Below are positions 1,699-40,056 of a stretch of DNA of 44,544 bases, one piece after another (positions within the stretch are counted from its first letter, which is position 1; each line of letters begins with the position of its first letter). The notes below the pieces were generated by a model. That model had not been told where the DNA came from and searched no databases. It saw only the letters and a program-made list of their open reading frames with translations. Made by a program: the position numbers and the translations under genes. The stretch is from Escherichia phage EC120. Location: the sequence record ON185580.1. One strand, given 5' to 3'.

Positions 1699-1812
1699 AT
1701 GGAAAAGCTATACAACTTCATCTTTTCAGACGGTGTAACCCTGAAGTGTTCCCTACGATTCGCTCAGATTCGTGAGGAAGTGCTAGGTACTACATACAAA
1801 CTATTTAGCTGA
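1699..1812 (+). CDS. Small hypothetical early protein (37 aa)
   Basis: ATG 2 nt after ocr stop with GAGGA RBS; same position as T7 gene 0.4. Confidence 0.3.
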   Translation: MEKLYNFIFSDGVTLKCSLRFAQIREEVLGTTYKLFS

Positions 1813-1825
1813 CACTATAAGAGAA
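1803..1825 (+). promoter_or_regulatory. Variant phage-RNAP promoter-like sequence (ATTTAGCTGACACTATAAGAG)
   Basis: Matches the SP6-type promoter except A instead of G at the expected +1; may be weak or non-functional. Confidence 0.35.
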
Positions 1826-1888
1826 GTCTTAACAAGGCGTTGCTACGGTAGCGCCTGATTAAACTTTCACTTACTAGAGGTTAAAATT

Positions 1889-2014
1889 ATGAAACTATCG
1901 CCATCCGCTAAAGGCCTCATTGCAGAACTTAAAGACTCTTTGAGGAATCCAATCATTTGGGCACTTATCTACATACCTTATGGTATCTACCTATTTCACC
2001 TCATCACTGAGTAA
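1889..2014 (+). CDS. Small hydrophobic early protein (41 aa)
   Basis: GAGG RBS; predicted TM segment IIWALIYIPYGIYLFHLI. Confidence 0.3.
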   Translation: MKLSPSAKGLIAELKDSLRNPIIWALIYIPYGIYLFHLITE

Positions 2015-2048
2015 ATAGCCTATAGCCTACCTATGTGGGCTATGTGAT

Positions 2049-2071
2049 ATTTACTTACACTATAAGGTGAT
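2049..2071 (+). promoter_or_regulatory. Divergent phage promoter-like sequence (ATTTACTTACACTATAAGGTG)
   Basis: Shares the ATTTAC and CACTATA blocks but has altered spacing and TATAAG; low confidence. Confidence 0.25.
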
Positions 2072-2075
2072 TAAT

Positions 2076-2999
2076 ATGACTACTGAAAACATCCTTCTGT
2101 CTGTTCGTGAAGCTGCAACCGCTGAAATCAAGCAGCACTTAGACAATATCGGCACTTCTTACATCAAAGTTGGCGCTTGTCTGAATGAATTACGCGGTGA
2201 TTTCGAAGGTCAAAAAGACTTTTTAGCTTATGTAGAATCAGAGTTCGGCATCAAGAAAGCACAATGCTACAAGCTGATGAGTGTAGCCCGTGTCTTTGAA
2301 GGAGACGAACGCTTTAAAGGTGTGGCTATGCGTGTAATGCTGGCGCTTGTTCCTTTCGCTGATGAAAATATGATCATGGAGAAGGCCGCAGAACTCGCCG
2401 CAGAGGGCAAGCTGGACACTAACGCCGTAAACGCCCTGATTGATCCTAAGAAAGAGACAAAGGCCGAGACGGTACAACCTAAGGTTGAGTCGGTAAAACC
2501 GCAGGAGAACGCGACTGAGGCCGCAGAAACTATGCAAGGACATGCAACCTTTGAGGATTTCATATTAGAGAAGGCGAAAGAGGAGCTACAAAGTGTGCCG
2601 CCAGCAAGTGAGTCTGGTAACGACGAATCCGCACCGTGGGAAGACAAAAGCAAGCAGGAAGACACAAAGGCAGCGCCACGGGATAACACGGCTAACACCG
2701 AGAGTGCCGCTATTGCTGGCCTTCTGGCACAAATTAAAGCACTGACCGAGCAATTACAGGCAGCTAATGACCGCATTGCCTCCTTAAGCAGCACACGCGA
2801 AAGCAAGAAAGCAGCCGCGCCTATGCTGCCGCAATTCAAATCTTCCTGCTTCTATGCTCGCTTAGGTTTAAGCGCTGAGGAGGCAACGAAGAAGACAGCA
2901 GTTAACAAGGCACGCCGCGAACTGGTTAAGCTAGGCTACGGCGAAGGCCATGAAGCATGGCCCTTAATCTCTGAGGCAGTAGAAGAATTAACTAAGTAA
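2076..2999 (+). CDS. Early protein of unknown function (307 aa) directly upstream of RNAP
   Basis: AAGGTGA RBS 5 nt before ATG 2076 (track start 2067 is GTG). Globular N-terminal region, low-complexity K/E/T/A-rich linker, conserved-looking C-terminal 60 aa. Occupies the T7 gene 0.7 position but has no recognisable kinase motifs. Confidence 0.7.
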   Translation: MTTENILLSVREAATAEIKQHLDNIGTSYIKVGACLNELRGDFEGQKDFLAYVESEFGIKKAQCYKLMSVARVFEGDERFKGVAMRVMLALVPFADENMIMEKAAELAAEGKLDTNAVNALIDPKKETKAETVQPKVESVKPQENATEAAETMQGHATFEDFILEKAKEELQSVPPASESGNDESAPWEDKSKQEDTKAAPRDNTANTESAAIAGLLAQIKALTEQLQAANDRIASLSSTRESKKAAAPMLPQFKSSCFYARLGLSAEEATKKTAVNKARRELVKLGYGEGHEAWPLISEAVEELTK

Positions 3000-3062
3000 C
3001 CTTATCGGTGGCATCTTCTTAGGTGTCACCTATTAAGGTTTCTTTCACTAGGAGTAAACAAG

Positions 3063-5690
3063 ATGCAAGACCTACACGCTATTCAACTTCAACTTGAAGA
3101 AGAAATGTTTAACGGCGGTATCCGTCGCTTTGAAGCGGACCAACAACGCCAGATTGCATCCGGTAATGAATCAGACACGGCATGGAATCGCCGCTTATTG
3201 TCCGAGTTAATCGCGCCAATGGCTGAAGGTATTCAGGCATACAAGGAAGAGTATGAAGGTAAAAGAGGCCGTGCACCGCGTGCATTAGCTTTCATTAACT
3301 GCGTAGAAAACGAAGTGGCAGCATATATCACGATGAAAATCGTTATGGATATGCTGAACACGGATGTAACTTTGCAGGCTATAGCCATGAATGTAGCTGA
3401 CCGCATTGAGGACCAAGTACGTTTTAGCAAGCTGGAAGGTCACGCCGCCAAATACTTTGAGAAAGTTAAGAAGTCACTTAAGGCAAGTAAGACTAAATCA
3501 TATCGCCATGCGCACAACGTAGCGGTCGTGGCTGAGAAGTCAGTAGCTGACCGTGACGCTGATTTCTCTCGCTGGGAGGCGTGGCCTAAAGATACCTTGC
3601 TACAAATTGGTATGACCTTGCTAGAAATACTGGAAAATAGTGTATTCTTCAATGGTCAGCCTGTCTTTCTTCGCACCTTGCGCACTAATGGTGGCAAGCA
3701 TGGCGTTTACTACTTACAGACTAGCGAACACGTGGGTGAATGGATAACTGCATTTAAAGAGCACGTAGCTCAGCTGAGTCCAGCCTATGCGCCTTGCGTT
3801 ATTCCTCCTCGTCCGTGGGTTTCTCCGTTTAATGGTGGCTTCCATACTGAGAAAGTAGCAAGCCGTATTCGTCTAGTAAAAGGCAATCGTGAGCACGTCC
3901 GCAAGCTGACCAAAAAGCAAATGCCAGCGGTTTACAAGGCTGTTAACGCTTTGCAGGCGACTAAGTGGCAGGTTAATAAAGAGGTTTTGCAGGTAGTAGA
4001 GGACGTTATCCGTCTCGACCTTGGTTATGGTGTGCCTTCCTTTAAACCACTCATCGACCGTGAGAACAAGCCAGCTAATCCAGTGCCGTTAGAGTTCCAG
4101 CACCTGCGAGGCCGTGAATTGAAAGAGATGCTAACACCGGAGCAATGGCAGGCCTTCATCAACTGGAAGGGTGAATGTACTAAGCTGTATACCGCTGAGA
4201 CTAAGCGCGGCAGCAAGTCGGCGGCGACCGTCCGCATGGTAGGACAGGCCCGTAAATACAGCCAGTTTGACGCTATTTATTTTGTATATGCACTGGATAG
4301 CCGTTCACGCGTTTATGCGCAATCTAGCACGCTCTCGCCGCAATCAAACGACTTAGGCAAGGCATTGCTCCGTTTTACCGAAGGGCAGCGTCTTGATAGC
4401 GCTGAGGCGCTTAAGTGGTTTTTGGTGAACGGGGCGAATAACTGGGGTTGGGATAAGAAAACTTTTGACGTGCGCACCTCTAACGTGCTGGATGGCGAAT
4501 TTCAAGACATGTGCCGCGACATTGCAGCCGATCCGCTGACCTTCACTCAATGGGTAAATGCTGATTCCCCTTACGGCTTCCTTGCATGGTGCTTTGAATA
4601 TGCGCGTTATCTGGATGCACTGGATGAAGGCACGCAAGACCAATTCATGACGCACCTACCCGTCCATCAAGACGGTAGTTGCTCTGGTATCCAGCACTAT
4701 AGCGCGATGTTACGCGATGAAGTAGGTGCGAAAGCAGTAAACCTTAAGCCTTCTGACTTCCCTCAAGATATTTATGGCGCGGTTGCGCAGGTTGTTATCC
4801 AGAAGAATTACGCCTACATGAATGCAGACGATGCAGAGACTTTCACATCTGGAAGCGTCACACTTACAGGTGCAGAACTGCGTAGCATGGCTAGTGCGTG
4901 GGATATGATAGGAATCACTCGCGGATTGACCAAAAAGCCCGTAATGACACTACCTTATGGCAGCACACGTCTAACCTGCCGTGAATCAGTGATTGATTAT
5001 ATCGTTGATTTGGAAGAAAAAGAGGCCCAACGAGCTATTGCGGAAGGGCGTACCGCCAATCCTGTACATCCTTTTGATAATGACCGTAAGGACAGCCTGA
5101 CACCTAGTGCAGCTTATAACTATATGACGGCTTTAATCTGGCCTTCTATTTCGGAAGTGGTTAAAGCTCCTATAGTGGCAATGAAAATGATTCGTCAGCT
5201 TGCCCGTTTCGCAGCTAAAAGGAATGAAGGCTTAGAGTATACCTTGCCTACTGGCTTCATCTTGCAACAAAAGATTATGGCTACTGATATGCTCCGCGTA
5301 TCCACTTGCCTGATGGGAGAAATCAAGATGAGTCTACAGATTGAAACGGACGTAGTGGATGAAACGGCTATGATGGGCGCTGCTGCTCCTAACTTTGTGC
5401 ATGGTCATGATGCCAGTCACCTTATCTTAACAGTCTGCGACCTTGTTGATAAAGGGATTACATCTATCGCAGTCATTCATGATTCTTTCGGTACTCACGC
5501 AGGCCGTACAGCCGATCTTCGTGATAGCTTAAGGGCAGAAATGGTGAAGATGTATCAAGGCCGTAATGCCCTGCAAAGCCTGTTAGATGAGCATGAAGAA
5601 CGCTGGTTAGTAGACACCGGAATCCAAGTGCCAGAGCAAGGAGAGTTTGACCTTAACGAAATCTTAGTATCTGACTATTGCTTCGCATAA
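3063..5690 (+). CDS. Single-subunit DNA-dependent RNA polymerase (SP6-type)
   Basis: 875 aa; N-terminus [32 protein letters not shown] and C-terminus ...[10 protein letters not shown]...FA align by recall with SP6 RNAP; catalytic [14 protein letters not shown] and VIHDSFGTH motifs present. Confidence 0.97.
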
Positions 5691-5698
5691 TATTAATA

Positions 5699-5729
5699 GG
5701 CCATTCCTTCGGGAGTGGCCTTTTCTTTT
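5699..5729 (+). terminator. Intrinsic terminator after RNAP gene
   Basis: 9-bp stem GGCCATTCC/GGAGTGGCC with TTCG tetraloop, followed by TTTTCTTTT. Confidence 0.6.
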
Positions 5730-5763: not shown

Positions 5764-5779
5764 GTCTCACATGTGAGAC
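5764..5779. repeat. Palindrome GTCTCACATGTGAGAC (copy 1)
   Basis: Perfect 16-bp palindrome, 2 nt upstream of phage promoter 5782. Confidence 0.8.
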
Positions 5780-5781
5780 TT

Positions 5782-5804
5782 ATTTACCGGACACTATAGG
5801 ATAG
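5782..5804 (+). promoter_or_regulatory. Phage-RNAP promoter (ATTTACCGGACACTATAGGATAG)
   Basis: 18-bp SP6-type core; expected +1 G at 5799. Confidence 0.7.
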
Positions 5805-5947
5805 CCGTCGGAGACGGGGAAAGAAAGGGAAGATAAAGGATATAAAAAGGAAGTGATAGGTATTAAAGGCTATATAGGTTATCTAGGAATACCTATTACC
5901 TTCTTCCTTCCTCTTATTACTACTTAGAGGAAGGGCAGATCTAGGTT

Positions 5948-5963
5948 GTCTCACATGTGAGAC
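5948..5963. repeat. Palindrome GTCTCACATGTGAGAC (copy 2)
   Basis: Perfect 16-bp palindrome, 5 nt upstream of promoter 5969. Confidence 0.8.
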
Positions 5964-5968: not shown

Positions 5969-5991
5969 ATTTACCGGACAGTATAGATAAG
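5969..5991 (+). promoter_or_regulatory. Phage-RNAP promoter variant (ATTTACCGGACAGTATAGATAAG)
   Basis: One substitution in the core (CAGTATAG); expected +1 G at 5986. Confidence 0.6.
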
Positions 5992-6148: not shown

Positions 6149-8137
6149 ATGGCTATTATTCAGAATGTACCGTGTCCTGCCTGTCAAAAGAATGGACATG
6201 ATATTACTGGCAACCATCTTATGATATTTGAGGATGGCGCTGGTTACTGTAACCGTGGTCACTTCCATGATAATGGGAAGCCTTATTACCATAAGCCAGA
6301 GGGTGGTATCGAGATAACCGAATTGCCTATTACTGGCAATATCAAATATACACCTTCTCAATTCAAAGAAATGGAGAAGGAAGGGAAGATAAGCGACCCT
6401 AAGCTACGCGCCATCGCTCTTGGTGGTATGCGTATGAAAGACCGTTGGGAGGTCATGAATGAGCAAGAAAGGGCAGACCAAGAAGCAGAGTGGAAACTTG
6501 ATGTTGAATGGTTCCTCACGCTTAAGCGTAAGAACCTTGTTTCCAGACACATTCGCGGCGACATTTGCGCATTGTATGATGTACGTGTCGGACACGATGA
6601 AGAGGGTAGAGTCTCGCGGCATTACTATCCACGCTTCGAGAAAGGTGAGCTAGTAGGAGCTAAGTGTCGCACATTACCTAAAGATTTTAAGTTTGGTCAT
6701 TTAGGTAAACTCTTTGGTATGCAAGATCTTTTCGGTATGAATACTTTGTCTCACGTGTTAGACAAGGGGAGACGAAAGGATTGCTTGCTTATTGTAGGCG
6801 GTGAACTTGATGCACTAGCAGCGCAGCAGATGCTCCTTGATTCTGCCAAAGGTACTAAGTGGGAAGGACAACCATATCATGTGTGGTCTGTCAACAAGGG
6901 CGAGTCTTGCCTTGAAGAGATAGTGCAGAACCGTGAGCATATCGCCCAATTCAAGAAGATTATATGGGGTTTTGATGGAGATGAGGTAGGGCAGAAGCAG
7001 AATCAGCAAGCGGCTCGCCTGTTTCCTGGCAAATCCTATATCCTTGAATACCCCTCTGGTTGCAAAGATGCTAACAAGGCATTGATGGCTGGCAAGGCCA
7101 AAGAGTTTGTTGATGCATGGTTTAATGCCAAGTCATCTGATGAAGTCTTTGGTAGCCAGATTAAATCTATCGCATCTCAAAGGGATAAGCTCAAGGCTGC
7201 ACGTCCAGAGCAAGGACTATCATGGCCTTGGCCTAAGCTGAACAAGGTAACGCTAGGTATTCGTAAGAACCAACTTATCATTGTAGGCGCAGGCTCTGGT
7301 GTAGGTAAGACTGAGTTCCTTCGTGAAGTAGTTAAGCACCTCATTGAAGAACACGGTGAATCTGTAGGCATCATTTCTACAGAAGACCCGATGGTCAAGG
7401 TGTCCCGTGCTTTTATCGGCAAGTGGATTGATAAGCGTATTGAGTTACCGCCAACCAACGACCCGAAAGAAGATGGATACCGTGAGGTGTTCGACTACAC
7501 CGAGGAAGAAGCCAATGCTGCCATTGATTATGTAGCGGATACAGGGAAGCTGTTTGTGGCTGACCTAGAGGGTGACTATTCGATGGAGAAGGTAGAGCAG
7601 ACTTGCCTTGAGTTTGAGGCTATGGGTATTTCTAATATCATCATTGATAACTTAACGGGGATTAAATTAGATGAGCGTGCTTTTGGTGGGAAGGTTGGTG
7701 CACTTGATGAATGCGTCAAGCGGATTGGTACTATCAAAGACCGACACCCGGTTACTATATTCCTTGTATCGCACCTTACACGTCCTCCGGCAAACCGTAC
7801 CCAACACGAAGAAGGTGGCGAGGTTATCCTTTCTGACTTCCGAGGCTCAGGAGCTATCGGATTCTGGGCATCTTACGCCTTGGGGATTGAGCGTAACACA
7901 AGAGCTGAAACGCTTGATGAAAGAACTACCACGTACATCTCATGTGTCAAAGACCGCGACCAAGGTATCTGGACTGGAACCAAGGTCATGCTTAAGGGTG
8001 ACATTCAAACCGGACGTTTAATGGAACCACAAGCCCGTACTAAGTCATTTGATACAGGTGAAGCAAGGCAACAAGAAGTACCAGATTTACCGGACACTAT
8101 AGAAGAGACTAACTTCGATGAAGAAAGTGAGTTCTGA
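6149..8137 (+). CDS. DNA primase/helicase (T7 gp4-like)
   Basis: N-terminal Cys4 zinc-binding motif (CPACQ...C..GHFHD), Walker A GAGSGVGKTEF, acidic C-terminus ending EESEF. Confidence 0.93.
   Translation: MAIIQNVPCPACQKNGHDITGNHLMIFEDGAGYCNRGHFHDNGKPYYHKPEGGIEITELPITGNIKYTPSQFKEMEKEGKISDPKLRAIALGGMRMKDRWEVMNEQERADQEAEWKLDVEWFLTLKRKNLVSRHIRGDICALYDVRVGHDEEGRVSRHYYPRFEKGELVGAKCRTLPKDFKFGHLGKLFGMQDLFGMNTLSHVLDKGRRKDCLLIVGGELDALAAQQMLLDSAKGTKWEGQPYHVWSVNKGESCLEEIVQNREHIAQFKKIIWGFDGDEVGQKQNQQAARLFPGKSYILEYPSGCKDANKALMAGKAKEFVDAWFNAKSSDEVFGSQIKSIASQRDKLKAARPEQGLSWPWPKLNKVTLGIRKNQLIIVGAGSGVGKTEFLREVVKHLIEEHGESVGIISTEDPMVKVSRAFIGKWIDKRIELPPTNDPKEDGYREVFDYTEEEANAAIDYVADTGKLFVADLEGDYSMEKVEQTCLEFEAMGISNIIIDNLTGIKLDERAFGGKVGALDECVKRIGTIKDRHPVTIFLVSHLTRPPANRTQHEEGGEVILSDFRGSGAIGFWASYALGIERNTRAETLDERTTTYISCVKDRDQGIWTGTKVMLKGDIQTGRLMEPQARTKSFDTGEARQQEVPDLPDTIEETNFDEESEF
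8085..8107 (+). promoter_or_regulatory. Phage-RNAP promoter embedded in 3' end of primase-helicase gene
   Basis: ATTTACCGGACACTATAGAAGAG; expected +1 G at 8102. Confidence 0.6.
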
Positions 8138-8157
8138 TTAGTGTATTTATCAGGGCT

Positions 8158-8175
8158 TGTCTCACATGTGAGACA
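8158..8175. repeat. Palindrome TGTCTCACATGTGAGACA (copy 3)
   Basis: Perfect 18-bp palindrome (extendable with wobble pairs to 8153-8180) right after the primase-helicase stop, followed by CTCTTATT. Confidence 0.8.
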
Positions 8176-8213
8176 GGCTCTTATTAAGTACATTAAATAA
8201 CTGGAGATTGATT

Positions 8214-8897
8214 ATGTATAAATTAGTATTGAATGTAGGTGATTATGTTCGTAACATCAATGAAGCCTCACGTCGTTATCGTTGCCGTGGTGTAGTGGCT
8301 CGTGTAAGTGAGAACATGTATCATGTAGAATATGAGGATGGTATTAAGGCTTCTTACCACAAGAAAACAGCACATAAATACCTTGAAAAGATTGTAGAGA
8401 TAAACAATCAATGTAAGTGCATACATGATGAGGTTTGCGATAAATGTGCTCGCCAGATGCTTAAGAATTTCCTAGCTCCTCTTTATTATGGTTCTGGCCC
8501 TCAAACACTAGCAGAGTACATGGCAGAAAAGAAAACCACACTCAAGAAAGAGCGCCGCAATGTAATCACTGGTAAGACTCAAAGTGAAATGATTAAACTA
8601 TGTGGCACTGCATTAGGTGTTACGCAGTTTAATACTCGTTCATTGGGTAAATCCACAGGGCAAGCTATGGTGAAGATTGGTGAAGCCATGATGCAACCAA
8701 ATGTACCTGTGCGAATCGTGGATATTGACCATGCAATCACAGAGCATGGTACACCACGCCGTGTAGCTAACAATCATTTTGCCGACACTATAGAAGACAT
8801 TATTCGTAAGCAAGGGTTGAAGGGTCTTCACATCTTAAATGGTGAAGAATTACTGTACCTACCTATCGTTACTGAAGAAACCTACGTGAATATCTAA
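8214..8897 (+). CDS. Hypothetical protein (227 aa)
   Basis: GGAG RBS then ATG 8214 (track start 8208 is TTG); no recognised motifs. Confidence 0.65.
   Translation: MYKLVLNVGDYVRNINEASRRYRCRGVVARVSENMYHVEYEDGIKASYHKKTAHKYLEKIVEINNQCKCIHDEVCDKCARQMLKNFLAPLYYGSGPQTLAEYMAEKKTTLKKERRNVITGKTQSEMIKLCGTALGVTQFNTRSLGKSTGQAMVKIGEAMMQPNVPVRIVDIDHAITEHGTPRRVANNHFADTIEDIIRKQGLKGLHILNGEELLYLPIVTEETYVNI
8776..8798 (+). promoter_or_regulatory. Weak or divergent phage promoter-like sequence (ATTTTGCCGACACTATAGAAGAC)
   Basis: Conserved GACACTATAGAAG with 4 mismatches in the upstream half; lies inside a CDS. Confidence 0.4.
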
Positions 8898-9126: not shown

Positions 9127-9292
9127 ACATAGTCTTAAAATGTTCGATGGTCATGAAGACCTGCAAGCCAAGATTACTAACCAAGCCTTCCTGTTCGCAC
9201 AGTTAACTATGGCTGAAGCAAAGAAGAATAGCCTGACGCGTGAACAGGTTATCAAGGAAAGTGAAGTGAAACGTAAGATTCGCAGTCGATAA
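9116..9292 (+). CDS. Small hypothetical protein (58 aa)
   Basis: ATG overlapping the end of the previous ORF in another frame; basic C-terminus. Confidence 0.3.
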   Translation: MQNKHSLKMFDGHEDLQAKITNQAFLFAQLTMAEAKKNSLTREQVIKESEVKRKIRSR

Positions 9293-9302
9293 GTCAAGGG
9301 TT

Positions 9303-9318
9303 GTCTCACACGTGAGAC
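9303..9318. repeat. Palindrome variant GTCTCACACGTGAGAC (copy 4)
   Basis: 7-bp arms identical to the other copies with a 2-nt central mismatch; extendable to 9299-9322; followed by CTTTCATC. Confidence 0.75.
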
Positions 9319-9349
9319 AGCCTTTCATCATATTGATTGGAGGTGCATT

Positions 9350-12476: not shown

Positions 12477-12499
12477 GATTTACTGGACACTATAGAAGG
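12477..12499 (+). promoter_or_regulatory. Phage-RNAP promoter (consensus copy)
   Basis: ATTTACTGGACACTATAGAAGGA; expected +1 G at 12494. Confidence 0.75.
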
Positions 12500-12564: not shown

Positions 12565-12942
12565 ATGTCTATGGTAACTACTCTGGTATTTGTAGCTCAA
12601 TACTTTCGTGGTCTGGCTAATAAGTTCAAGTCCAAGGCTATCAAAGCTATTGAGTCTCGCATCGAGGCAGTACAGGCAGAGCAGGTTAAAGTTGAAGAAC
12701 ATCGTAGTTCTCAAATGATTGACTGCCATAACCGCTACTATGCATCTCGTGATGACCTTAATGCACGCCAAGTCAAAGAGGTTGAAGAGATGCTGGCACG
12801 TCACCAGCAAGAGCGCGACAGTCTGAAAGCTGAATTTGAAGAGAACAAGGCATCCATCGCCCTTGTACATCAAGCCGCATCTGACAGCCTGAAGAAAGAG
12901 ATTGTTATGCTGGAAATTGAGTTAGACAACCTGACCAAATAA
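12565..12942 (+). CDS. Hypothetical coiled-coil protein (125 aa)
   Basis: AGGAGA RBS; heptad-rich charged sequence. Confidence 0.65.
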   Translation: MSMVTTLVFVAQYFRGLANKFKSKAIKAIESRIEAVQAEQVKVEEHRSSQMIDCHNRYYASRDDLNARQVKEVEEMLARHQQERDSLKAEFEENKASIALVHQAASDSLKKEIVMLEIELDNLTK

Positions 12943-12963
12943 TTACTGGACACTATAGAACAA
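12941..12963 (+). promoter_or_regulatory. Phage-RNAP promoter
   Basis: AATTACTGGACACTATAGAACAA; overlaps the stop codon of the upstream ORF; expected +1 G at 12958. Confidence 0.7.
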
Positions 12964-14140: not shown

Positions 14141-14156
14141 GTCTCACATGTGAGAC
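14141..14156. repeat. Palindrome GTCTCACATGTGAGAC (copy 5)
   Basis: Perfect 16-bp palindrome starting 2 nt after the stop of ORF 13921-14139; 15 nt upstream of promoter 14172. Confidence 0.8.
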
Positions 14157-14171: not shown

Positions 14172-14194
14172 ATTTACTGGACACTATAGAAGAG
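14172..14194 (+). promoter_or_regulatory. Phage-RNAP promoter (consensus copy)
   Basis: ATTTACTGGACACTATAGAAGAG; expected +1 G at 14189. Confidence 0.75.
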
Positions 14195-14618: not shown

Positions 14619-14624
14619 TTGATG

Positions 14625-14657
14625 CCCTGTCTGCCTTAGTGTAGGCAGGGTCTTTTG
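14625..14657 (+). terminator. Hairpin terminator after ORF 14244-14618
   Basis: 10-bp stem CCCTGTCTGC/GTAGGCAGGG (two G-U pairs), loop CTTAGT, then TCTTTTG; same architecture as the post-capsid terminator. Confidence 0.5.
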
Positions 14658-16309: not shown

Positions 16310-17309
16310 GCTTCGCAGCTTGTACAAAGACTCCGAGGTACTTGATGCAATCGAGCAAGCTACCGACGAGAAAGGTAATGTTAATTACAATGAGATGGCA
16401 CGTGTATTATCGTGTCACCCTGTGGGTAAGAAGATTACCCGCCAGTTGGCTCGATACTGGCATGGTCAATTCAAGAAGACCAAGAAGAATGGTGATTATT
16501 ACCAGACCCTTCTGCAAGAAGATAAGCGTATCAAAGAAGAGCGTAAGCTCAGGACTCCTGACCGCTACGAGGATTTGGCTATTGTACCATTGCCTGACTC
16601 GCCTCATCGAAGTGTATTGGTAATCCCTGATACTCATGCACCTTATGAGCATCCAGATACCTTAGAGTTCCTTGCAGCAGTCGCGGCACGTTACCGTCCA
16701 GATACAGTGGTTCACTTAGGAGATGAGGCAGATAAACACGCCCTCTCCTTCCATGACTCTGACCCGAATCTGGATAGTGCTGGCATGGAGCTAGAGAAGG
16801 CTCGTGTCTTCATGCACAAGTTGCACAAGATGTTCCCTGTGATGCGCCTGTGTCATTCTAATCACGGCTCTATGCACTTCCGTAAGGCAAGCGCCAAGGG
16901 TATTCCAGTGCAATATCTTCGCACCTACCGTGAAGTCTTCTTCCCAAATGGAGGTGGCGACCAGTGGGATTGGCAGCATACACATGTTCTTGAGTTGCCG
17001 AATGGCGAACAGGTGGCATTCAAGCATCAACCTGCTGGCTCTGTCCTAGCAGATGCAGCGCATGAGCGTATGAACCTTGTGTGTGGTCACTTGCACGGTA
17101 AGATGTCTGTGGAGTACGCACGTAATACACATGAACAGTATTGGGCTGTGCAAGGTGGCTGCTTAATTGATGAGTCATCCCGTGCATTTGCCTATGGGCG
17201 TGAGTCTAAATACAAGCCAGCATTAGGTTGTGTGGTTATTCTGGAGGGTGTACCTCATATTGTCCCGATGCAAACCAATAGCGACAACCGTTGGATTGGC
17301 AAGATTTAG
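16302..17309 (+). CDS. Calcineurin-like metallophosphoesterase (335 aa from TTG; alternative ATG at 16393)
   Basis: Motifs IPDTHAPYEH (DxH), HLGDEADKH (GDxxD), CHSNHG (GNH-like), CGHLHG (GHxH). Strong AAGGAGG RBS 6 nt before TTG 16302. Confidence 0.75.
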   Translation: MGKLRSLYKDSEVLDAIEQATDEKGNVNYNEMARVLSCHPVGKKITRQLARYWHGQFKKTKKNGDYYQTLLQEDKRIKEERKLRTPDRYEDLAIVPLPDSPHRSVLVIPDTHAPYEHPDTLEFLAAVAARYRPDTVVHLGDEADKHALSFHDSDPNLDSAGMELEKARVFMHKLHKMFPVMRLCHSNHGSMHFRKASAKGIPVQYLRTYREVFFPNGGGDQWDWQHTHVLELPNGEQVAFKHQPAGSVLADAAHERMNLVCGHLHGKMSVEYARNTHEQYWAVQGGCLIDESSRAFAYGRESKYKPALGCVVILEGVPHIVPMQTNSDNRWIGKI

Positions 17310-17326
17310 TTGACACTATAGAACAA
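17304..17326 (+). promoter_or_regulatory. Phage-RNAP promoter (ATTTAGTTGACACTATAGAACAA)
   Basis: Overlaps the TAG stop of the phosphoesterase gene; expected +1 G at 17321. Confidence 0.7.
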
Positions 17327-22635: not shown

Positions 22636-22658
22636 ATTTACTGGACACTATAGAAGGG
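22636..22658 (+). promoter_or_regulatory. Phage-RNAP promoter upstream of major capsid gene
   Basis: ATTTACTGGACACTATAGAAGGG; expected +1 G at 22653; transcript begins with stem-loop GGGAGAA/TTCTCCC (22656-22672). Confidence 0.8.
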
Positions 22659-23917: not shown

Positions 23918-23925
23918 TACCTATG

Positions 23926-23960
23926 CCCTATCTACCTTGCGTAGGTAGGGTTCTTTTTTT
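23926..23960 (+). terminator. Intrinsic terminator after major capsid gene
   Basis: Stem CCCTATCTACC/GGTAGGTAGGG (one G-U pair), loop TTGC, then TTCTTTTTTTG; positional analogue of T7 T-phi. Confidence 0.7.
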
Positions 23961-27835: not shown

Positions 27836-30783
27836 TGGCAATTGAGCGACAAGCAGTACAAGGTCTGCCACAAGTGCAGGCCACTTCTCCTAATGTCATG
27901 ACCTTTGCACCTCAGCGAGTTGGAGGTGTGGAGGTTGGCGTAGCTTCTACCTCCGGTAGTCGATTTATCGAAGACCTTATTCGAGCAGCCAGTAGTGTAG
28001 CTGATGTAACCACTGGTATCCTTAATCAAAAGATTGAGGAAGATAAGGTTGTTCAAATGGAACGGGCATATAACGGATTAATGCCTTCTGAGGATGCAAC
28101 TCGTGGTGGCGCTCGTGCTAACATGCTTGTCAAAGCTCAACTGCTAGCTAATGATGAAGCAGCACGAATGAAAGACATGGCTACTCGTTTCCAAGGAACG
28201 GATGACGAGTGGACACAACTTATGGTTGACTCTCGTAATGAGATGCAGAATAAGCTGTTCCAGCAATACCCTGAGTTGCAAGGTGACAAAGATACTATGC
28301 GTATGGTCACTAATGTCTTCCAAGAACAGCAGCCTCAGATTTGGGCGACACGAACCCAGCATAAACTTGACCGTGAACAAGCAGACCGTGAGGATACCTT
28401 TGACGGGCGAGTGGCTTCTACTTGGGATTCTAATATTGACCCTGAAGCATCTGGTTATGCTTTACAGGAACGAATCCGCGAAGGTCTTACTCAAGGATTA
28501 CTACCTGAACAGATGCACAAGAAGTTAGTCCAGCGAGCAATTTCACTTGCACAAGGCGGTGATGTTAGCATGGCTGAAGCCCTGAAGTATGTGAAGGACG
28601 ATAAGGGTGTTTCTGTTTATGCTAAGAATCCACAGCTTATCACAGCCATCACTAGTGGTAATGCAGTTTGGGCTAGGAATAATGTAGCTGATGTAACTCG
28701 TATGTCTTTCGAAGTTAAAGAATCCTACCTTGCAGGTGATTTAACTGATGAAGAATTGTTGGAACGAGCACAGCACATTAATAATCTGACAGGTAACTCT
28801 GTCTTCTCTAATCCAGAGCTAGAGGCACTGATGCGCCAACGGGCTAAGCAGAATGCAGAGCTAGGTGCAATGCAGGATATGCGACGTGAGCTTTACTCCG
28901 ACCGCCTGACTGGCTTCCAAGGTAAGACTGATAAAGAGAAGAAGGCTTACATTGATGTTATCAAACAGGATAGCCAACTTTATGCAGACCAGCAAATCAA
29001 ACAACGTGGCTTGGACCCTTACAGTCAAGAGGCTGAAGCTATTCGTGGTGCAGTGGAAGTGCAGCGCCTGCAATTCATGAACTCCAAAGGCTTAGTGGAT
29101 GATACCTTTGAGTCTCGTATCAAAGCCATGGAATCTATGCTATCGCCTGAGCACTTTGCCAAGGGCGAACCACAGGAGTTGATGACTATTCGCCAGTTGT
29201 GGGAACAGTTGCCAGAAGAGAGCCGAGGTGTCTTTGGTGACACGGTGAATGGCTACATGGATAACTACAACACTGCACTACAAATGGGAGAGACACCTTT
29301 GCAGGCTGCAAGGTTTGCGCGTGAAGCACAGCAGAAATTCTCTCGTACTGAGAAGGAAACCAAGAAGTTCAACTCAGCTATTGGAGATGCACTGGATGAG
29401 GTATCTGGTGCTGGCTGGTTTGATGGTAAAACCGAAGTGTCAGACTTAGGTAAAGCTATTGCGGAAGAAGAGTTACGAGCTAAGGCCAATATGTTGTGGT
29501 CTAGTGGTATGCGTAACATGGATTCTATCAAGAAGGCTTTAATTACTTGGGGCAATAAACGCTACACTCAAACAGAGGATGCAAAGACTTCCGGTGGCTA
29601 TTTCATTAAAGGTGATTACACTTCTGCCTCTGATATGCTTATGTCAGTTGGGAAAGGCGTAAATCCTACCGATGTACCTCTGGCGCTTGGTAGGTATGTA
29701 GAAACACAGATGCCAGAATTGAAGAAGGAGCTTCAAGAGTGGGAAACTAAAGATGATATATACATTGATTACAATGAACAGAAAGGTACTTTCGTGATTC
29801 GTGCTGGTGCAGCAGGTCGCCCTCTTTCTGGAGTAATCCCTGTAACCTCTTTAGATACCACTTCACTACTAGATTCTGCCTATCAGAAGAAAGTAGAGGA
29901 ACGAGATAAAGGCGAGTATGTTCACCCTTATCGTACAGATATTGGTGCACAAGAGCCTATGCCAGCTAAACCAACTGCCAAAGATATTGGTAAATTTGGA
30001 CTAGCTAACTTCCTCATGTCTTCTGCTTTTGCTTCTGGTGAGAATCTGCCTTCTAACTTCGAGATTAACTATCGAGGTAATATGCAACAATTCTATGACA
30101 AGCTAGCTATGGATGAGAATAAAGATAAAGTTGGCTTTAATAAGGCAACTGGAACCTTTACTCCATATAAAGATGCTCACGGTGAGTCTATCGGTTACGG
30201 TCATTTCTTAACGGAAGAAGAGAAGCGAAACGGGTATATTAAGATTGGTGATGAACTAGTTCCCTATCGAGGGTCTATGTCTCAGCTTACAGAGAGCAAG
30301 GCTCGCGCTCTTATGGAGCAAGATGCCAAGAAGCATGTGCCTCCTACTCGTGACTGGAAGATTCCGTTTGACCAGATGCATCCTGCACAGCAACGTGGCT
30401 TGATGGATTTAACCTACAATTTAGGTAAAGGTGGAATCCAGAACTCACCGCGTGCTCTTGCTGCATTCAAAGCTGGTAAGCTTACGGAAGGCTTTATCGA
30501 AATGCTGGGCACTGCATCAAGTGAAGGTAAGCGTATCCCTGGTCTACTGAAGCGACGCGCTGAGGCATACAATATGGCATCTGCTGGTGGTGTGCCTAAG
30601 ATTACCGAAGTGGAGACTCGTGAAGATGGCTCCATGTGGGTTAGGTTTGGTGGACCTATGCCAGCAGGTTCTGTCTCGGCATGGACTCATAAACGTATTG
30701 GCGCGGATGGTTGGTATCAGGTTTATGAGGCTGCACCTACCAAGTTAGCTAAAGGTTCTAAGGTAGGTAAATTTAAGTTGTAG
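27835..30783 (+). CDS. Internal virion protein with C-terminal lysozyme-like domain
   Basis: 981 aa; segment TFTPYKDAHGESIGYGHFLTEEEK resembles the T4/P22 lysozyme core (YKDTEGYYTIGIGH). Confidence 0.75.
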   Translation: MAIERQAVQGLPQVQATSPNVMTFAPQRVGGVEVGVASTSGSRFIEDLIRAASSVADVTTGILNQKIEEDKVVQMERAYNGLMPSEDATRGGARANMLVKAQLLANDEAARMKDMATRFQGTDDEWTQLMVDSRNEMQNKLFQQYPELQGDKDTMRMVTNVFQEQQPQIWATRTQHKLDREQADREDTFDGRVASTWDSNIDPEASGYALQERIREGLTQGLLPEQMHKKLVQRAISLAQGGDVSMAEALKYVKDDKGVSVYAKNPQLITAITSGNAVWARNNVADVTRMSFEVKESYLAGDLTDEELLERAQHINNLTGNSVFSNPELEALMRQRAKQNAELGAMQDMRRELYSDRLTGFQGKTDKEKKAYIDVIKQDSQLYADQQIKQRGLDPYSQEAEAIRGAVEVQRLQFMNSKGLVDDTFESRIKAMESMLSPEHFAKGEPQELMTIRQLWEQLPEESRGVFGDTVNGYMDNYNTALQMGETPLQAARFAREAQQKFSRTEKETKKFNSAIGDALDEVSGAGWFDGKTEVSDLGKAIAEEELRAKANMLWSSGMRNMDSIKKALITWGNKRYTQTEDAKTSGGYFIKGDYTSASDMLMSVGKGVNPTDVPLALGRYVETQMPELKKELQEWETKDDIYIDYNEQKGTFVIRAGAAGRPLSGVIPVTSLDTTSLLDSAYQKKVEERDKGEYVHPYRTDIGAQEPMPAKPTAKDIGKFGLANFLMSSAFASGENLPSNFEINYRGNMQQFYDKLAMDENKDKVGFNKATGTFTPYKDAHGESIGYGHFLTEEEKRNGYIKIGDELVPYRGSMSQLTESKARALMEQDAKKHVPPTRDWKIPFDQMHPAQQRGLMDLTYNLGKGGIQNSPRALAAFKAGKLTEGFIEMLGTASSEGKRIPGLLKRRAEAYNMASAGGVPKITEVETREDGSMWVRFGGPMPAGSVSAWTHKRIGADGWYQVYEAAPTKLAKGSKVGKFKL

Positions 30784-30799
30784 TATCTAACTCAAGGCT

Positions 30800-30817
30800 T
30801 GTCTCACATGTGAGACA
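30800..30817. repeat. Palindrome TGTCTCACATGTGAGACA (copy 6)
   Basis: Perfect 18-bp palindrome between two internal virion protein genes, followed by GGTCTTTATG. Confidence 0.8.
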
Positions 30818-30847
30818 GGTCTTTATGATAGGCACTATGGAGGAATT

Positions 30848-35747: not shown

Positions 35748-36043
35748 GCGTACATAACAAACATGCAGCTACAGAAGACGAGGTTGGCATTCTGCATGGT
35801 GCTATTACCAAAATCTTCAATAAGAAAGCACAGGCAATACTGGACACTATAGAAGAAGACCCTGATGCAGCACTGCATTTAGTGTCTGGTAAAGACATTG
35901 GAGCTATGTGTAAGTGGGTTCTTGATAACGGCATTACCGCCACACCTGCTGCACAGCAGGAAGAATCCAAGTTATCTAAGCGCCTCAAGGCTATCCGAGA
36001 GGCATCCAGTGGCAAGATTATTCAGTTTACAAAAGAGGAGTGA
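35744..36043 (+). CDS. Putative terminase small subunit (TTG start)
   Basis: 99 aa directly upstream of large terminase; no in-frame ATG near the 5' end; GGAG 8 nt before TTG 35744. Confidence 0.45.
   Translation: MSVHNKHAATEDEVGILHGAITKIFNKKAQAILDTIEEDPDAALHLVSGKDIGAMCKWVLDNGITATPAAQQEESKLSKRLKAIREASSGKIIQFTKEE
35835..35857 (+). promoter_or_regulatory. Phage promoter-like sequence inside small terminase gene
   Basis: CAATACTGGACACTATAGAAGAA; 3 upstream mismatches to the consensus. Confidence 0.45.
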
Positions 36044-36044
36044 T

Positions 36045-36488
36045 ATGCATAGATGGTGTGAATCTCAAGGTTATACCATCTTACCTTCTGGTGTCATCCT
36101 TTCAAAGGGTGGCACCCCTCTCAAACCATTCAAGGCGGGTAGGGGTTATTTAGCAGTTAAAATTAAAAATAAAGAAGGTAAATGGCGTAATGTCTATGTT
36201 CATCAATTAGTGGCTTATAAATATTTACCTAAAACTAATAATGAAGTAAACCACAAAGACGGCGATAAGCACAACAATGATGTTAGCAACTTGGAGTGGG
36301 TAACAAGAAGCGAGAATAACTATTTAAAATGCAATGGAAATGATAGGAGTGCCTTAAATAGCTATTTAGCAAGATTAAAAGATTGCTTCTTGCAAGGTAA
36401 GGGTGTAGCAGAAACCGCTAGACTTACTGGTAAAAGTGAACCAAGAGTTTCTTCTCTCTTTAAGGAGTGGCGAAATGGCAAAGGCTAG
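36045..36488 (+). CDS. HNH homing endonuclease (copy 2)
   Basis: GAGGAG RBS then ATG 36045; VNHKDGDKHNNDVSNLEW...RSEN; clearly paralogous to copy 1; overlaps large terminase start. Confidence 0.75.
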   Translation: MHRWCESQGYTILPSGVILSKGGTPLKPFKAGRGYLAVKIKNKEGKWRNVYVHQLVAYKYLPKTNNEVNHKDGDKHNNDVSNLEWVTRSENNYLKCNGNDRSALNSYLARLKDCFLQGKGVAETARLTGKSEPRVSSLFKEWRNGKG

Positions 36489-38373
36489 AGAATCACAGGC
36501 AGAGGCATTAAAGCGGTGGGAAAACCTTAAAGAACTACAAGACACTTTTAAATATACAGCGGAAGGTTTGCTTCTCTTTGCAGATACAGTTATTCATAAC
36601 TTAATTGCAGGCAACCCTCATCTGATTCGTATGCAGGCGGATATCTTGAAGTTCCTATTTTACGGACACAAGTACCGCCTCATCGAAGCGCCTCGTGGTA
36701 TCGCTAAGACAACACTATCAGCAATCTATACGGTATTCCGTATTATTCATGAACCGCATAAGCGTATCATGGTTGTGTCCCAAAACGCCAAGCGAGCAGA
36801 GGAAATCGCAGGTTGGGTAGTTAAAATCTTCCGTGGCTTAGACTTTCTTGAGTTTATGCTGCCGGATATCTACGCTGGGGACCGTGCATCCGTTAAGGCG
36901 TTTGAGATTCATTACACCCTACGTGGTAGTGATAAGTCTCCTTCTGTATCCTGTTACTCAATCGAAGCAGGTATGCAGGGTGCTCGTGCTGATATTATTC
37001 TAGCGGATGACGTAGAGTCGATGCAGAATGCTCGTACGGCAGCGGGCCGTGCCTTGCTTGAGGAACTGACTAAGGAGTTTGAATCTATCAACCAGTTTGG
37101 GGATATCATTTACCTTGGTACACCTCAGAACGTAAACTCTATCTACAACAACCTACCTGCTCGTGGTTACTCTGTTCGTATCTGGACTGCGCGTTACCCT
37201 TCAGTAGAGCAAGAGCAATGTTATGGCGACTTCCTTGCACCTATGATTGTTCAAGATATGAAGGACAACCCAGCACTTCGCTCAGGGTACGGGTTGGATG
37301 GTAATAGTGGTGCACCTTGTGCCCCTGAAATGTATGATGATGAAGTCCTGATTGAGAAGGAAATCTCTCAAGGTGCTGCTAAGTTCCAGCTTCAGTTCAT
37401 GCTTAACACTCGCATGATGGATGCTGACAGATACCCATTACGCCTGAACAATCTAATCTTCACCTCGTTTGGTACAGAGGAAGTCCCTGTGATGCCTACG
37501 TGGAGTAATGATTCCATAAACATCATTGGTGATGCACCTAAGTATGGTAACAAGCCTACGGATTTCATGTACAGACCTGTAGCTCGCCCATACGAATGGG
37601 GTGCTGTCTCCCGCAAGATTATGTATATTGACCCTGCGGGTGGTGGTAAGAACGGAGATGAGACGGGTGTAGCCATCGTATTCCTGCACGGCACATTCAT
37701 TTATGTGTATCAGTGCTTTGGTGTACCTGGCGGATACCGAGAGTCGTCCCTGAATCGCATTGTGCAGGCCGCAAAGCAGGCGGGTGTTAAAGAGGTATTC
37801 ATTGAGAAGAACTTTGGTCATGGCGCGTTTGAGGCGGTAATTAAGCCGTACTTTGAACGAGAGTGGCCTGTAACTCTGGAAGAGGATTACGCCACCGGAC
37901 AGAAAGAGTTGCGTATCATTGAGACGCTGGAGCCGCTCATGGCAGCCCATAGGCTTATCTTCAATGCAGAGATGGTGAAGTCAGACTTTGAGTCGGTACA
38001 GCACTATCCGCTTGAACTACGCATGTCCTACAGTCTTTTCAATCAAATGTCGAACATAACGATTGAGAAGAACAGCCTCCGGCACGATGACCGCCTAGAC
38101 GCCCTGTATGGCGCTATACGGCAATTAACTTCTCAGATAGACTATGATGAGGTTACACGGATTAATCGCCTCAGAGCGCAGGAGATGCGCGATTACATCC
38201 ATGCTATGAACACACCTCATCTACGCAGGGCAATGCTATATGGAGATTACGGTACTGAGCGAAGAGTGACCAACACTTCCGTAGCGATGCAGCAGCGAGT
38301 TTACGGGCAGAACTACCGAAATAAATCGGCAAGCAGAAATACACTTTCTGCAAGGATTTCAAGGACTTATTAA
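36475..38373 (+). CDS. Terminase large subunit
   Basis: ATPase region ...YRLIEAPRGIAKTT... and nuclease region parallel recalled T7 gp19; TAAGGAG RBS then ATG 36475 (track start 36436). Confidence 0.9.
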   Translation: MAKARESQAEALKRWENLKELQDTFKYTAEGLLLFADTVIHNLIAGNPHLIRMQADILKFLFYGHKYRLIEAPRGIAKTTLSAIYTVFRIIHEPHKRIMVVSQNAKRAEEIAGWVVKIFRGLDFLEFMLPDIYAGDRASVKAFEIHYTLRGSDKSPSVSCYSIEAGMQGARADIILADDVESMQNARTAAGRALLEELTKEFESINQFGDIIYLGTPQNVNSIYNNLPARGYSVRIWTARYPSVEQEQCYGDFLAPMIVQDMKDNPALRSGYGLDGNSGAPCAPEMYDDEVLIEKEISQGAAKFQLQFMLNTRMMDADRYPLRLNNLIFTSFGTEEVPVMPTWSNDSINIIGDAPKYGNKPTDFMYRPVARPYEWGAVSRKIMYIDPAGGGKNGDETGVAIVFLHGTFIYVYQCFGVPGGYRESSLNRIVQAAKQAGVKEVFIEKNFGHGAFEAVIKPYFEREWPVTLEEDYATGQKELRIIETLEPLMAAHRLIFNAEMVKSDFESVQHYPLELRMSYSLFNQMSNITIEKNSLRHDDRLDALYGAIRQLTSQIDYDEVTRINRLRAQEMRDYIHAMNTPHLRRAMLYGDYGTERRVTNTSVAMQQRVYGQNYRNKSASRNTLSARISRTY

Positions 38374-38394
38374 TTACTGGACACTATAGAAGGA
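38372..38394 (+). promoter_or_regulatory. Phage-RNAP promoter overlapping terminase stop codon
   Basis: AATTACTGGACACTATAGAAGGA; expected +1 G at 38389. Confidence 0.75.
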
Positions 38395-38807: not shown

Positions 38808-38824
38808 TAAAAGGAGAAGATAAT

Positions 38825-39112
38825 ATGTCTAAGTATGGCGATGCAGGTACGACTACTGGTCAGGTTTTTCGTGTAAAAGCAGTACAAACTATTGCAACTG
38901 CAATTCCTATGCCTATCGTGGCAGAAGCTGACCTTAAAAAGAAAGATCATCCAATTAATATTGAACACCTATCTGGTAAGCAGAAAGGTGCTATGGTGGT
39001 TGTAGATAAAGGAGATAGCCTTTATATTGCTATTGCGCGTGGCTCTGCACCAACTGACAAGTGGGATGCAACTACTATGGAGGTGACACCTGTCACTCCA
39101 GAAGGGGATTAA
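38825..39112 (+). CDS. Hypothetical protein (95 aa), paralogue B
   Basis: Tandem paralogue of 38526-38807; AAGGAGAAGA RBS. Confidence 0.6.
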   Translation: MSKYGDAGTTTGQVFRVKAVQTIATAIPMPIVAEADLKKKDHPINIEHLSGKQKGAMVVVDKGDSLYIAIARGSAPTDKWDATTMEVTPVTPEGD

Positions 39113-39114
39113 TA

Positions 39115-39459
39115 ATGCTTAACAAATACTTCAAGCGTAAAGAGTTCGCTTGCCGTTGTGGGTGCGGTACATCCACTGTTGATGCTGAATTACTACAGGT
39201 AGTCACAGATGTGCGTGAGCACTTTGGTTCTCCTGTAGTTATCACTTCGGGGCATCGCTGTGCTAAGCACAATGCTAATGTAGGAGGAGCTAAGAACTCC
39301 ATGCATCTTACTGGTAAGGCTGCTGACATTAAGGTACGAGGCATCTTACCTTCTGATGTACATAAGTATCTTACTGATAAGTACCAAGGCAAGTATGGTA
39401 TTGGTAAATATACCTCCTTTACTCATATTGATGTACGTGACGGGTGTGCACGATGGTAG
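39115..39459 (+). CDS. Endolysin, peptidase M15-type (zinc D-Ala-D-Ala carboxypeptidase/L-Ala-D-Glu peptidase fold)
   Basis: SGHRC...H...D pattern (ITSGHRCAKHNANVGG...HLTGKAADI...HID) typical of the M15 family; ATG 39115 (track start 39061). Confidence 0.7.
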   Translation: MLNKYFKRKEFACRCGCGTSTVDAELLQVVTDVREHFGSPVVITSGHRCAKHNANVGGAKNSMHLTGKAADIKVRGILPSDVHKYLTDKYQGKYGIGKYTSFTHIDVRDGCARW

Positions 39460-39567
39460 GTTGTGTTGCATGGTGTGAACGCATGGTTGCTAAGGCTTCA
39501 GAGGAAGGCAACTATGAAGATTGGCAGAACTACTCAACTTTATTAGCTCAATGGAAAGGGAGATGCA

Positions 39568-39717
39568 ATGAAAAAGCTGTTCAAATCTAAGAAGGTTGTA
39601 GGTGCACTAGTTGCATTGGCAATTGCTCTTGTTTCTGTAGGTCTTGGTGTAGACCTTGGCTCTGGCACGGAATCCTCTGTGACAGATGTGGTCTGCCAAG
39701 TGATCACCTGTGAATAA
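39568..39717 (+). CDS. Small membrane protein (49 aa) in lysis region
   Basis: AAAGGGAGA RBS; N-terminal basic residues then TM VVGALVALAIALVSVGLGV. Confidence 0.35.
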   Translation: MKKLFKSKKVVGALVALAIALVSVGLGVDLGSGTESSVTDVVCQVITCE

Positions 39718-39931
39718 GTTTCTAGAAGTGCTGGCAGGTCTTATTGGCCTGCTTGTCTCTGCTAAGAAGAAACAAGAAGAGAAGGAGGCACAAAGTGAAG
39801 CGAATCATGCTAGCGACAATCCTGCTGATTGGTTCGCTGACCATTTCAGGGTGTCAGCAGGTGTTACCAGAGAAAGCAATGGTGAAACCTCTGAGGCCGA
39901 CGCTGACGGAAGTTTACGAGGTAGACGATAA
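39710..39931 (+). CDS. Candidate i-spanin-like membrane protein (GTG start, 73 aa)
   Basis: N-terminal TM FLEVLAGLIGLLVSA then charged region; contains the lipoprotein ORF in the +1 frame. Short for an i-spanin and weak RBS. Confidence 0.3.
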   Translation: MNKFLEVLAGLIGLLVSAKKKQEEKEAQSEANHASDNPADWFADHFRVSAGVTRESNGETSEADADGSLRGRR

Positions 39932-40004
39932 GGTCTGCTTCAGTGAACCTGACGCTACAAAATTAGGTTTGTATATTCTTTCGCTAGAACGCGGATATAA
40001 TTAA
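39795..40004 (+). CDS. Candidate o-spanin (outer-membrane lipoprotein, 69 aa from GTG)
   Basis: GAAGGAGG RBS 6 nt before GTG 39795; signal MKRIMLATILLIGSLTISG followed by Cys (lipobox-like ISGC); embedded in the +1 frame of the previous ORF. Confidence 0.5.
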   Translation: MKRIMLATILLIGSLTISGCQQVLPEKAMVKPLRPTLTEVYEVDDKVCFSEPDATKLGLYILSLERGYN

Positions 40005-40033
40005 TACATAGCTTTATGTATCAGTGTCTTACG

Positions 40034-40056
40034 ATTTACTGGACACTATAGAAGAG
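40034..40056 (+). promoter_or_regulatory. Phage-RNAP promoter upstream of tailspike genes
   Basis: ATTTACTGGACACTATAGAAGAG; expected +1 G at 40051. Confidence 0.75.

Follow-up and report, generated by a model that had tools for sequence, protein, structure and literature searches.

The genome of Escherichia phage EC120 (sequence record ON185580.1), analysed here as one stretch of 44,544 nucleotides (nt) that is called the window below, carries a repeated motif of 21 base pairs (bp), whose copies lie between genes, over stop codons and even inside coding sequences. The motif raises the questions of whether its copies are promoters for the phage's own RNA polymerase, whether their departure from the SP6 promoter reflects an altered specificity of that polymerase, and whether the copies embedded in genes act as promoters at all. 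Almost certainly, 13 sites are promoters of the single-subunit RNA polymerase encoded by the phage (Table 1), in what is a Vectrevirus genome. The set is an ordinary one: its consensus is not new, and it is the already-described promoter set of K1-5 and K1E in a new isolate. Only a palindrome found near some of the promoters, together with the hairpins that it caps, may be new.

The window is a near-complete genome of Vectrevirus (the K1-5/K1E group; Molineuxvirinae, in the SP6 supergroup of T7-like phages), in which every gene lies on the + strand. Its first 25 kilobases are about 97% identical in nucleotide sequence to Escherichia phages EEc4, EEc2, LI10P3 and 6949, and 94–95% identical to K1-5. 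As expected where SP6-supergroup promoters occur, a T7-family polymerase gene is recognized in the genome by Pfam. The encoded enzyme is 100% identical in amino acid sequence to the polymerase of phage EEc2 and shares 750 of its 875 residues with SP6 polymerase, and its nearest solved structure is that of T7 RNA polymerase.

A pattern scan with ATTTACYGGACACTATAGAAG, in which up to three mismatches were allowed, gave 12 matches, all on the + strand (the promoters of Table 1 except that at 1803), while none appeared in 100 dinucleotide-preserving shuffles, so that 0 were expected by chance. These are the 12 strong matches listed in an earlier, sequence-only reading of this DNA: all of them exist on that strand and 11 had been placed correctly, but the one put at 12477 begins at 12478. 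When both strands were scanned with a position-weight matrix derived from the sites, exactly 13 sites were obtained at 28–38 bits, namely the 12 pattern matches and the site at 1803. The 14th-ranked site scored only 7.8 bits, the maximum over 20 shuffled genomes was 15.2 bits, and leave-one-out scoring placed the 13 sites between 20.6 and 37.6 bits. Like other SP6-supergroup promoters, the motif recurs many times, far more often than chance would allow, and always in the direction of the genes. Furthermore, in a frequency table of the sites the start is a purine preceded by TATA at −4 to −1, and the part at −17 to −13 is AT-rich, an arrangement seen in eight genera; the core of the motif, GACACTATAG, is common to the window and SP6.

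The eight genera, all of the Molineuxvirinae and compared as whole genomes, are represented by the window phage, SP6, Klebsiella phage VR702, Proteus phage MidiMira, Pectobacterium phage PP1, Erwinia phage Era103, Klebsiella phage F4M1D and Lelliottia phage phD2B. Each genus has its own promoter consensus at the same genome positions: ATTTACYGGACACTATAG in the window, K1-5 and K1E, ATTTAGGTGACACTATAG in SP6 and VR702, AATTARAGACCACTATAG in MidiMira, AATTAGGGCGGACTATAG in PP1, ATTAACCACCCAGTATAG in Era103, TAATAGTGGCGAGTATAG in F4M1D and AATTAGGGGCTACTATAG in phD2B. Such recurrence of a genus-specific consensus at fixed positions is what marks promoters as cognate to a polymerase encoded by the phage.

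It can hardly be maintained, on the other hand, that the repeats are not promoters and serve replication, recombination or packaging instead. The tandem pair at 5782 and 5969 does flank a purine-rich, AT-rich inverted repeat (5800–5945), in the place where T7 has its primary origin of replication (phi1.1A/1.1B), and by analogy this pair may also serve replication; such a role for two sites would, however, add to promoter function, as in T7. Moreover, the core is identical to that of the experimentally defined SP6 promoter, all copies have one orientation and most of them lie just upstream of genes. The K1E promoter is functional: the promoter of the K1E capsid gene, combined with K1E polymerase, drives expression (PMC6412113). 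What weighs against the assignment to the phage polymerase is that the start sites of this phage are placed by SP6 and T7 precedent.

Table 1. Positions in the window of the polymerase gene, the phage promoters, the terminator-like hairpins and the palindrome with its hairpins (start sites predicted; scores from the position-weight matrix).
Feature	Position	Strand	+1	Score (bits)	Remarks
Single-subunit (T7-family) RNA polymerase gene	3063..5690	+			875 residues; Pfam RNA_pol 4e-89, RPOL_N 1.5e-31
Specificity-loop coding region (residues 739–768)	5277..5366	+			Located by polymerase alignment; Ser747 codon 5301–5303
First phage promoter	1803..1823	+	1820 (A)	28.0 (23.2 leave-one-out)	ATTTAGCTGACACTATA, then AGAG
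Promoter, first of tandem pair	5782..5802	+	5799	32.9	Intergenic, just past polymerase gene
Promoter, second of tandem pair	5969..5989	+	5986	28.1	
Promoter in 3′ end of primase-helicase gene	8085..8105	+	8102	38.0	In-frame D-L-P-D-T-I-E-E
Promoter inside gp10 homologue	8776..8796	+	8793	28.1	Gene at 8208–8897
Promoter, intergenic	12478..12498	+	12495	36.6	Exact consensus
Promoter over stop of gp15 homologue	12941..12961	+	12958	34.6	GAAC start
Promoter, intergenic	14172..14192	+	14189	38.3	Exact consensus
Promoter over stop of phosphoesterase (gp22) gene	17304..17324	+	17321	32.1	
Promoter upstream of major capsid gene	22636..22656	+	22653	36.8	
Promoter-like site inside small-terminase gene	35835..35855	+	35852	30.2 (24.8 leave-one-out)	Reads I-L-D-T-I-E-E
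Promoter over large-terminase stop	38372..38392	+	38389	34.9	
Promoter upstream of K5-lyase tailspike gene	40034..40054	+	40051	38.3	
Terminator-like hairpin and T-run	5698..5721	+			Directly after polymerase gene; 10-bp stem with 6 GC pairs, then TTTCTTTT
Terminator-like hairpin	14624..14651	+			After gp18 homologue
Terminator-like hairpin and run of seven T	23925..23951	+			Directly after major capsid gene; position of T7 T-phi
Palindrome	5764..5779				2 nt upstream of promoter 5782
Palindrome	5948..5963				5 nt upstream of promoter 5969
Palindrome	14141..14156				15 nt upstream of promoter 14172
Palindrome, other copies	326–341, 6748–6763, 8159–8174, 9303–9318, 30801–30816				
Palindrome-capped interrupted hairpin	8140..8195	+			−27.9 kcal/mol, z = −7.9; 38 nt downstream of 8102 start
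Palindrome-capped hairpin	9285..9337	+			z = −5.2; upstream of DNA polymerase gene block
Palindrome-capped hairpin	30782..30836	+			z = −4.0; between gp35 and gp36 internal virion protein genes

Two variants in the early region had also been proposed as promoters, and only the one at 1803 is borne out. The other one, reported at 2049, is unsupported: the site TATTTACTTACACTATAAGG (2048..2068, + strand) is not among the scored sites of the matrix, has no G at −9, where that base is invariant, and fits the motif only with a gap of one base; the corresponding region ahead of the gp6 homologue is not promoter-like in SP6, VR702, PP1, F4M1D and phD2B. Upstream of the same gp6 homologue, a hairpin (2021–2044) is found between conserved AGCCTA and TGTGAA; its stem sequences vary among genera and the pairing is apparently kept. 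Standing ahead of gp6 and the polymerase gene, this hairpin could serve in termination, attenuation or processing.

The first promoter precedes gp5, gp6 and the polymerase gene. In six genera (those of the window, SP6, VR702, PP1, F4M1D and phD2B) it is a variant in which TATA is followed by AGAG or AGAT. In the genomes of the five relatives this A-start promoter is at 2104, ~2267, ~2693, ~3596 and ~2132. A conserved A-start promoter at this place would give positive feedback, that is, autoregulated transcription of the polymerase gene. Promoter 5782 has syntenic counterparts in K1-5, K1E and SP6, and promoter 5969 precedes a small gene labelled T7 gene 1.1-like in homologous records (Pfam Phage_1_1 in that of R4596). 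Most of the other window promoters start with GAAG and two middle ones with GAAC. The initial transcribed sequence GAACAA at these two middle promoters is position-conserved across genera (the promoter syntenic to 12941 has it in SP6, VR702, PP1 and phD2B), and so is GAAGGG at the capsid promoter. Such position-conserved initial sequences suggest that promoter strength is tuned per site.

How far, then, do the promoters differ from those of SP6? A departure at −12 to −10 had been claimed from the sequence alone, and it is true at the level of the consensus, where −12 and −10 are C and G in the window and G and T in SP6, but only −11 divides the two sets cleanly. At this position the 13 window sites have T eight times, C five times and never G, whereas G is present at all 13 sites of SP6 and all 13 of VR702. 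The classical SP6 hallmark, G at −11 within the SP6 consensus, is thus found at 0 of 13 window sites; the window promoter works SP6-like, yet is not an SP6 promoter in the strict sense.

Alignment of the specificity loop with that of SP6 polymerase, which the sequence-only reading had proposed as a check, fits this division. With the register of the loop fixed by the invariant anchors R746, G753, T763 and D770 (T7 numbering), the T7 contact residues R746, N748, R756 and Q758 correspond to R745, S747, K755 and S757 in the window and to R, R, K and S in SP6. The loops of the window and SP6 enzymes differ at six positions, and the sole non-conservative difference is Ser747 versus Arg746 of SP6, equivalent to Asn748 of T7 (RVSTC in the window, RVRTC in SP6 and VR702). 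In T7, N748 reads −10 and −11, as is known from the T7 promoter complex and from the T7/T3 swap. Because of this role of N748, Ser747 is most likely the best candidate for the altered preference at −11, judging from covariation. Across the genera, Ser goes with C or another pyrimidine at −11 (the window phage and Era103, the latter with C), and G at −11 goes with Arg (SP6, VR702, phD2B) or Lys (PP1). This pattern is suggestive, being correlative and not absolute.

Alternatively, the bases at −12 to −10 might have drifted neutrally away from those of SP6 while specificity stayed shared, with cross-recognition of both promoter types by the two polymerases and no co-evolution. Several points lean that way and weigh against a changed specificity. 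Positions −12 and −10 vary within each of the two genomes; site 17304 is a single base (T at −11) away from the SP6 consensus and might be recognized to some extent by SP6 polymerase, and the first promoter is also near the SP6 form. Five of the six loop differences are conservative, and the simple Arg-to-G rule is broken by F4M1D, which has Arg yet T or C at −11, and by the Proteus phage, which has Arg with A. In addition, K1E- and SP6-type enzymes do not obey the recognition rules derived from T7, and their three key residues, when grafted into T7 polymerase, gave no activity (PMC11880802). Nevertheless, drift is an improbable explanation. The split at −11 is perfect and goes together with the Ser/Arg difference at the counterpart of T7 Asn748, and the copies embedded in genes changed −11 despite altering amino acids. 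Besides, K1E and SP6 form separate polymerase/promoter clusters in a survey of 2025 (PMC11880802). A co-evolved polymerase specificity, as it had been suggested, is in keeping with both the split and the Ser747/Arg746 difference, the presumed mechanism being that this residue acts on base −11.

Several promoters overlap coding sequence. Those that had been located within genes or over stop codons are indeed there: 8085 lies in the primase-helicase gene (6149–8137), within its last 53 nt, 35835 lies in the small-terminase gene (35744–36043), and 12941, 17304 and 38372 run over the stops at 12940–12942, 17307–17309 and 38371–38373. Two more, not previously listed as such, are 8776, inside the gp10 homologue, and 1803, which covers the TGA stop (1810–1812) of a small gp4 homologue (1699–1812). 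These positions are no oddity, for promoters inside genes or over stops are the norm in T7/SP6-type phages because of their tight gene packing; in T7, a promoter is located inside gene 4.

One may still ask whether the three gene-internal copies (8085, 8776 and 35835) are by-products of coding instead of acting promoters. This is quite unlikely, since all three lie within the 28–38 bits of the set, far over background, and the helicase copy keeps its register and its distance to the stop. In all eight genera, an in-frame promoter is present with its +1 29–35 nt ahead of the helicase stop. Its nucleotides track the consensus of each genus, and the encoded peptide varies accordingly, from LPDTIEE in the window to LGDTIEE in SP6, LETTIEE in the Proteus phage, LGRTIEQ in PP1, IVAGIEE in F4M1D, IGATIEQ in phD2B and LPPSIEE in Era103. 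Because the peptide follows the consensus of the genus, the promoter evidently dictates part of the helicase tail, and selection appears to keep the sequence as a promoter. At the helicase C-terminus (8048–8137), the promoter sets four residues just ahead of an acidic tail ending in EF. The gp10 copy behaves likewise in three lineages, being common to the window, SP6 and VR702, and its C/G switch at −11 coincides with an Ala/Arg codon (Ala in the window, Arg in the other two). From these patterns, the helicase and gp10 copies are evidently real promoters.

For the small-terminase copy at 35835 the evidence is divided. Among the genera compared it is confined to Vectrevirus, within which the sequences are too alike for conservation to be informative; it sits on a conserved peptide motif, and its AT-rich part at −17 to −14 is degenerate (CAAT for ATTT), so that it may be weak. 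These points favour a coding by-product. In other genera, however, a similar peptide (AILDAIED in VR702) is encoded by codons that do not form a promoter, and by our count only about 1 in 864 codon combinations for ILDTIE yields the promoter sequence. Probably, 35835 is a weaker promoter.

From these sites, and on the model of T7 and SP6, a layout of transcription can be proposed. Host RNA polymerase would transcribe the left end through the polymerase gene to the terminator at 5698–5721. A scan of the window for the sigma-70 consensus was overall not above chance, and the matches at 376–404 and 960–988 are plausible early promoters by location alone. The phage polymerase would then start after ...ACACTATA at each site, at G (or at A in the case of 1820), and produce rightward, overlapping units, with a partial stop at the hairpin and T-run terminators past gp18 and past the capsid gene. 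All three terminator-like hairpins are annotated as terminators in the related R4596 record. As in the complex of T7 polymerase with its promoter, ATTTA at −17 to −13 would be read by the AT-rich recognition loop and −12 to −5 in the major groove by the specificity loop, and TATA would be melted. Differences from site to site probably set promoter strength.

Near some of the promoters, a second motif is found. A perfect 16-bp palindrome, GTCTCACATGTGAGAC, occurs in eight copies in the window, five of them exact, versus 0.17 expected. Its form across genera is GTCYMACRYGTKRGAC, and it is syntenic in seven of the eight; from the Proteus phage, only the left-end copy was recovered. One copy lies at the left end, upstream of the first early promoter. 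The gap between the palindrome and the −17 position of the promoter ranges across genera from about +19 nt down to a 1-base overlap (Proteus); the palindrome directly adjoins or runs into −17 in Era103 and the Proteus phage. The copy inside the helicase gene precedes the next start site by 1339 nt in four of the six genomes that have it, by 1342 nt in SP6 and by 1360 nt in F4M1D. That a subset of the promoters is coupled to this palindrome as a second, apparently undescribed cis-element is a proposal that we regard as rather doubtful.

In three of the copies (8159, 9303 and 30801) the stem is extended, on the + strand only, into a hairpin of ~55 nt that has an internal loop and a lower stem; the folding z-scores are weaker on the − strand. 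In an alignment of 21 sequences from seven phages and three sites, compensatory changes were found in 13 of 23 pairs. The hairpins share the structural features of T7-type RNase III hairpins: they are intergenic, of at least ~20 bp, interrupted, covarying and on the transcribed strand. By this analogy they look like T7-type RNase III processing sites and are candidates for this function. The one behind the helicase gene is called a terminator in one public record. No family was matched in an Rfam scan of the window, and a literature search for the palindrome sequences gave no match.

The nature of the palindrome was considered from several sides. A purely RNA helix for its core is weakened by the occurrence of both T.G and C.A half-site mixes, and a purely DNA site is weakened by the + strand-only stem extensions and compensatory changes of the three copies. 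Clusters of three to four copies, 30–50 nt apart, were also seen in unrelated high-GC contigs of IMG/VR (2061–2159; 964–1019), and Pfam searches on the genes neighbouring these clusters gave no functional clue. A parS-like site for ParB was rejected, as no ParB-like Pfam match was present beside the clustered copies in two high-GC viral contigs. If a sequence-specific factor does bind the palindrome, as DNA or as RNA hairpin, promoters or transcripts of SP6-type phages would be under factor-dependent control, for which T7 has no known counterpart. The literature search brought up no description of the palindrome or its hairpins, which are candidates for a role in regulation or processing.

Two other parts of the genome deserve mention. 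Two HNH_3 homing-endonuclease genes (35316–35747 and 36045–36488; Pfam 5e-9 and 2.6e-11) flank the small-terminase gene. K1-5 has neither of them, and through these insertions the small- and large-terminase genes have ceased to overlap. There are also two tailspike genes, at 40136–42034 and 42120–43832. The first product is 99% identical to the K5 lyase of K1-5. The second is a 570-residue beta-helix protein and not the K1 endosialidase, the similarity being confined to the N-terminal adaptor part, which suggests a host range other than K1.

The promoter set confirms that the isolate uses the standard transcription programme of K1-5 and K1E, and the sites can be annotated with confidence; in the five public records inspected (K1-5, K1E, SP6, EEc4 and R4596), no promoter features are annotated. 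The comparison of eight genera is a natural experiment on the co-variation of promoters and polymerases, and Ser747/Arg746 together with base −11 would make a simple swap for orthogonal SP6-type polymerase/promoter pairs.

Among known systems, K1-5 (AY370674) and K1E (AM084415) are the closest. They have the same consensus as was used for the pattern scan and the same 13 gene-relative positions, their polymerases are ~99% identical to that of the window, and their individual sites are near-identical, weak ones included, with single-base differences only, such as GGATAC in the K1-5 helicase site. Unlike in K1-5, site 35835 now precedes an HNH gene ahead of the large-terminase gene. The promoters of K1-5 and K1E were reportedly given in the genome papers of Scholl et al. 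2004 (J Mol Biol 335:1151) and Stummeyer et al. 2006 (Mol Microbiol 60:1123).

SP6 (Zindervirus), with the classical promoter ATTTAGGTGACACTATAGAAG, shares with the window the identical core from −9 to +1 and the AT-rich part at −17 to −13. Syntenic promoters are present in SP6 for 12 of the 13 window sites. SP6 also shares the A-start variant in front of the polymerase gene, as well as the position-specific initial transcribed sequences. SP6 differs at −11, as described above, and is without the small-terminase site, having instead a site of its own inside gene 36 (29393).

T7 uses one polymerase with class II and class III promoters, among them phi1.1A/1.1B after gene 1, phi4c inside gene 4 and the A-initiating phi2.5. 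Like T7, the window phage has one phage polymerase and a set of co-oriented promoters (~13–17 promoters of 23 bp in this type of system), a tandem pair just past the polymerase gene and before a homologue of gene 1.1, a promoter within the primase-helicase gene and a terminator behind the capsid gene, and promoter strength is apparently graded by departure from the consensus. The polymerases share about a third of their amino acids (31.6% by tblastn, 36% by alignment) and recognize different sequences. Unlike T7, the window has no evident lysozyme-type regulator of the T7 kind, and it has a promoter upstream of the polymerase gene itself.

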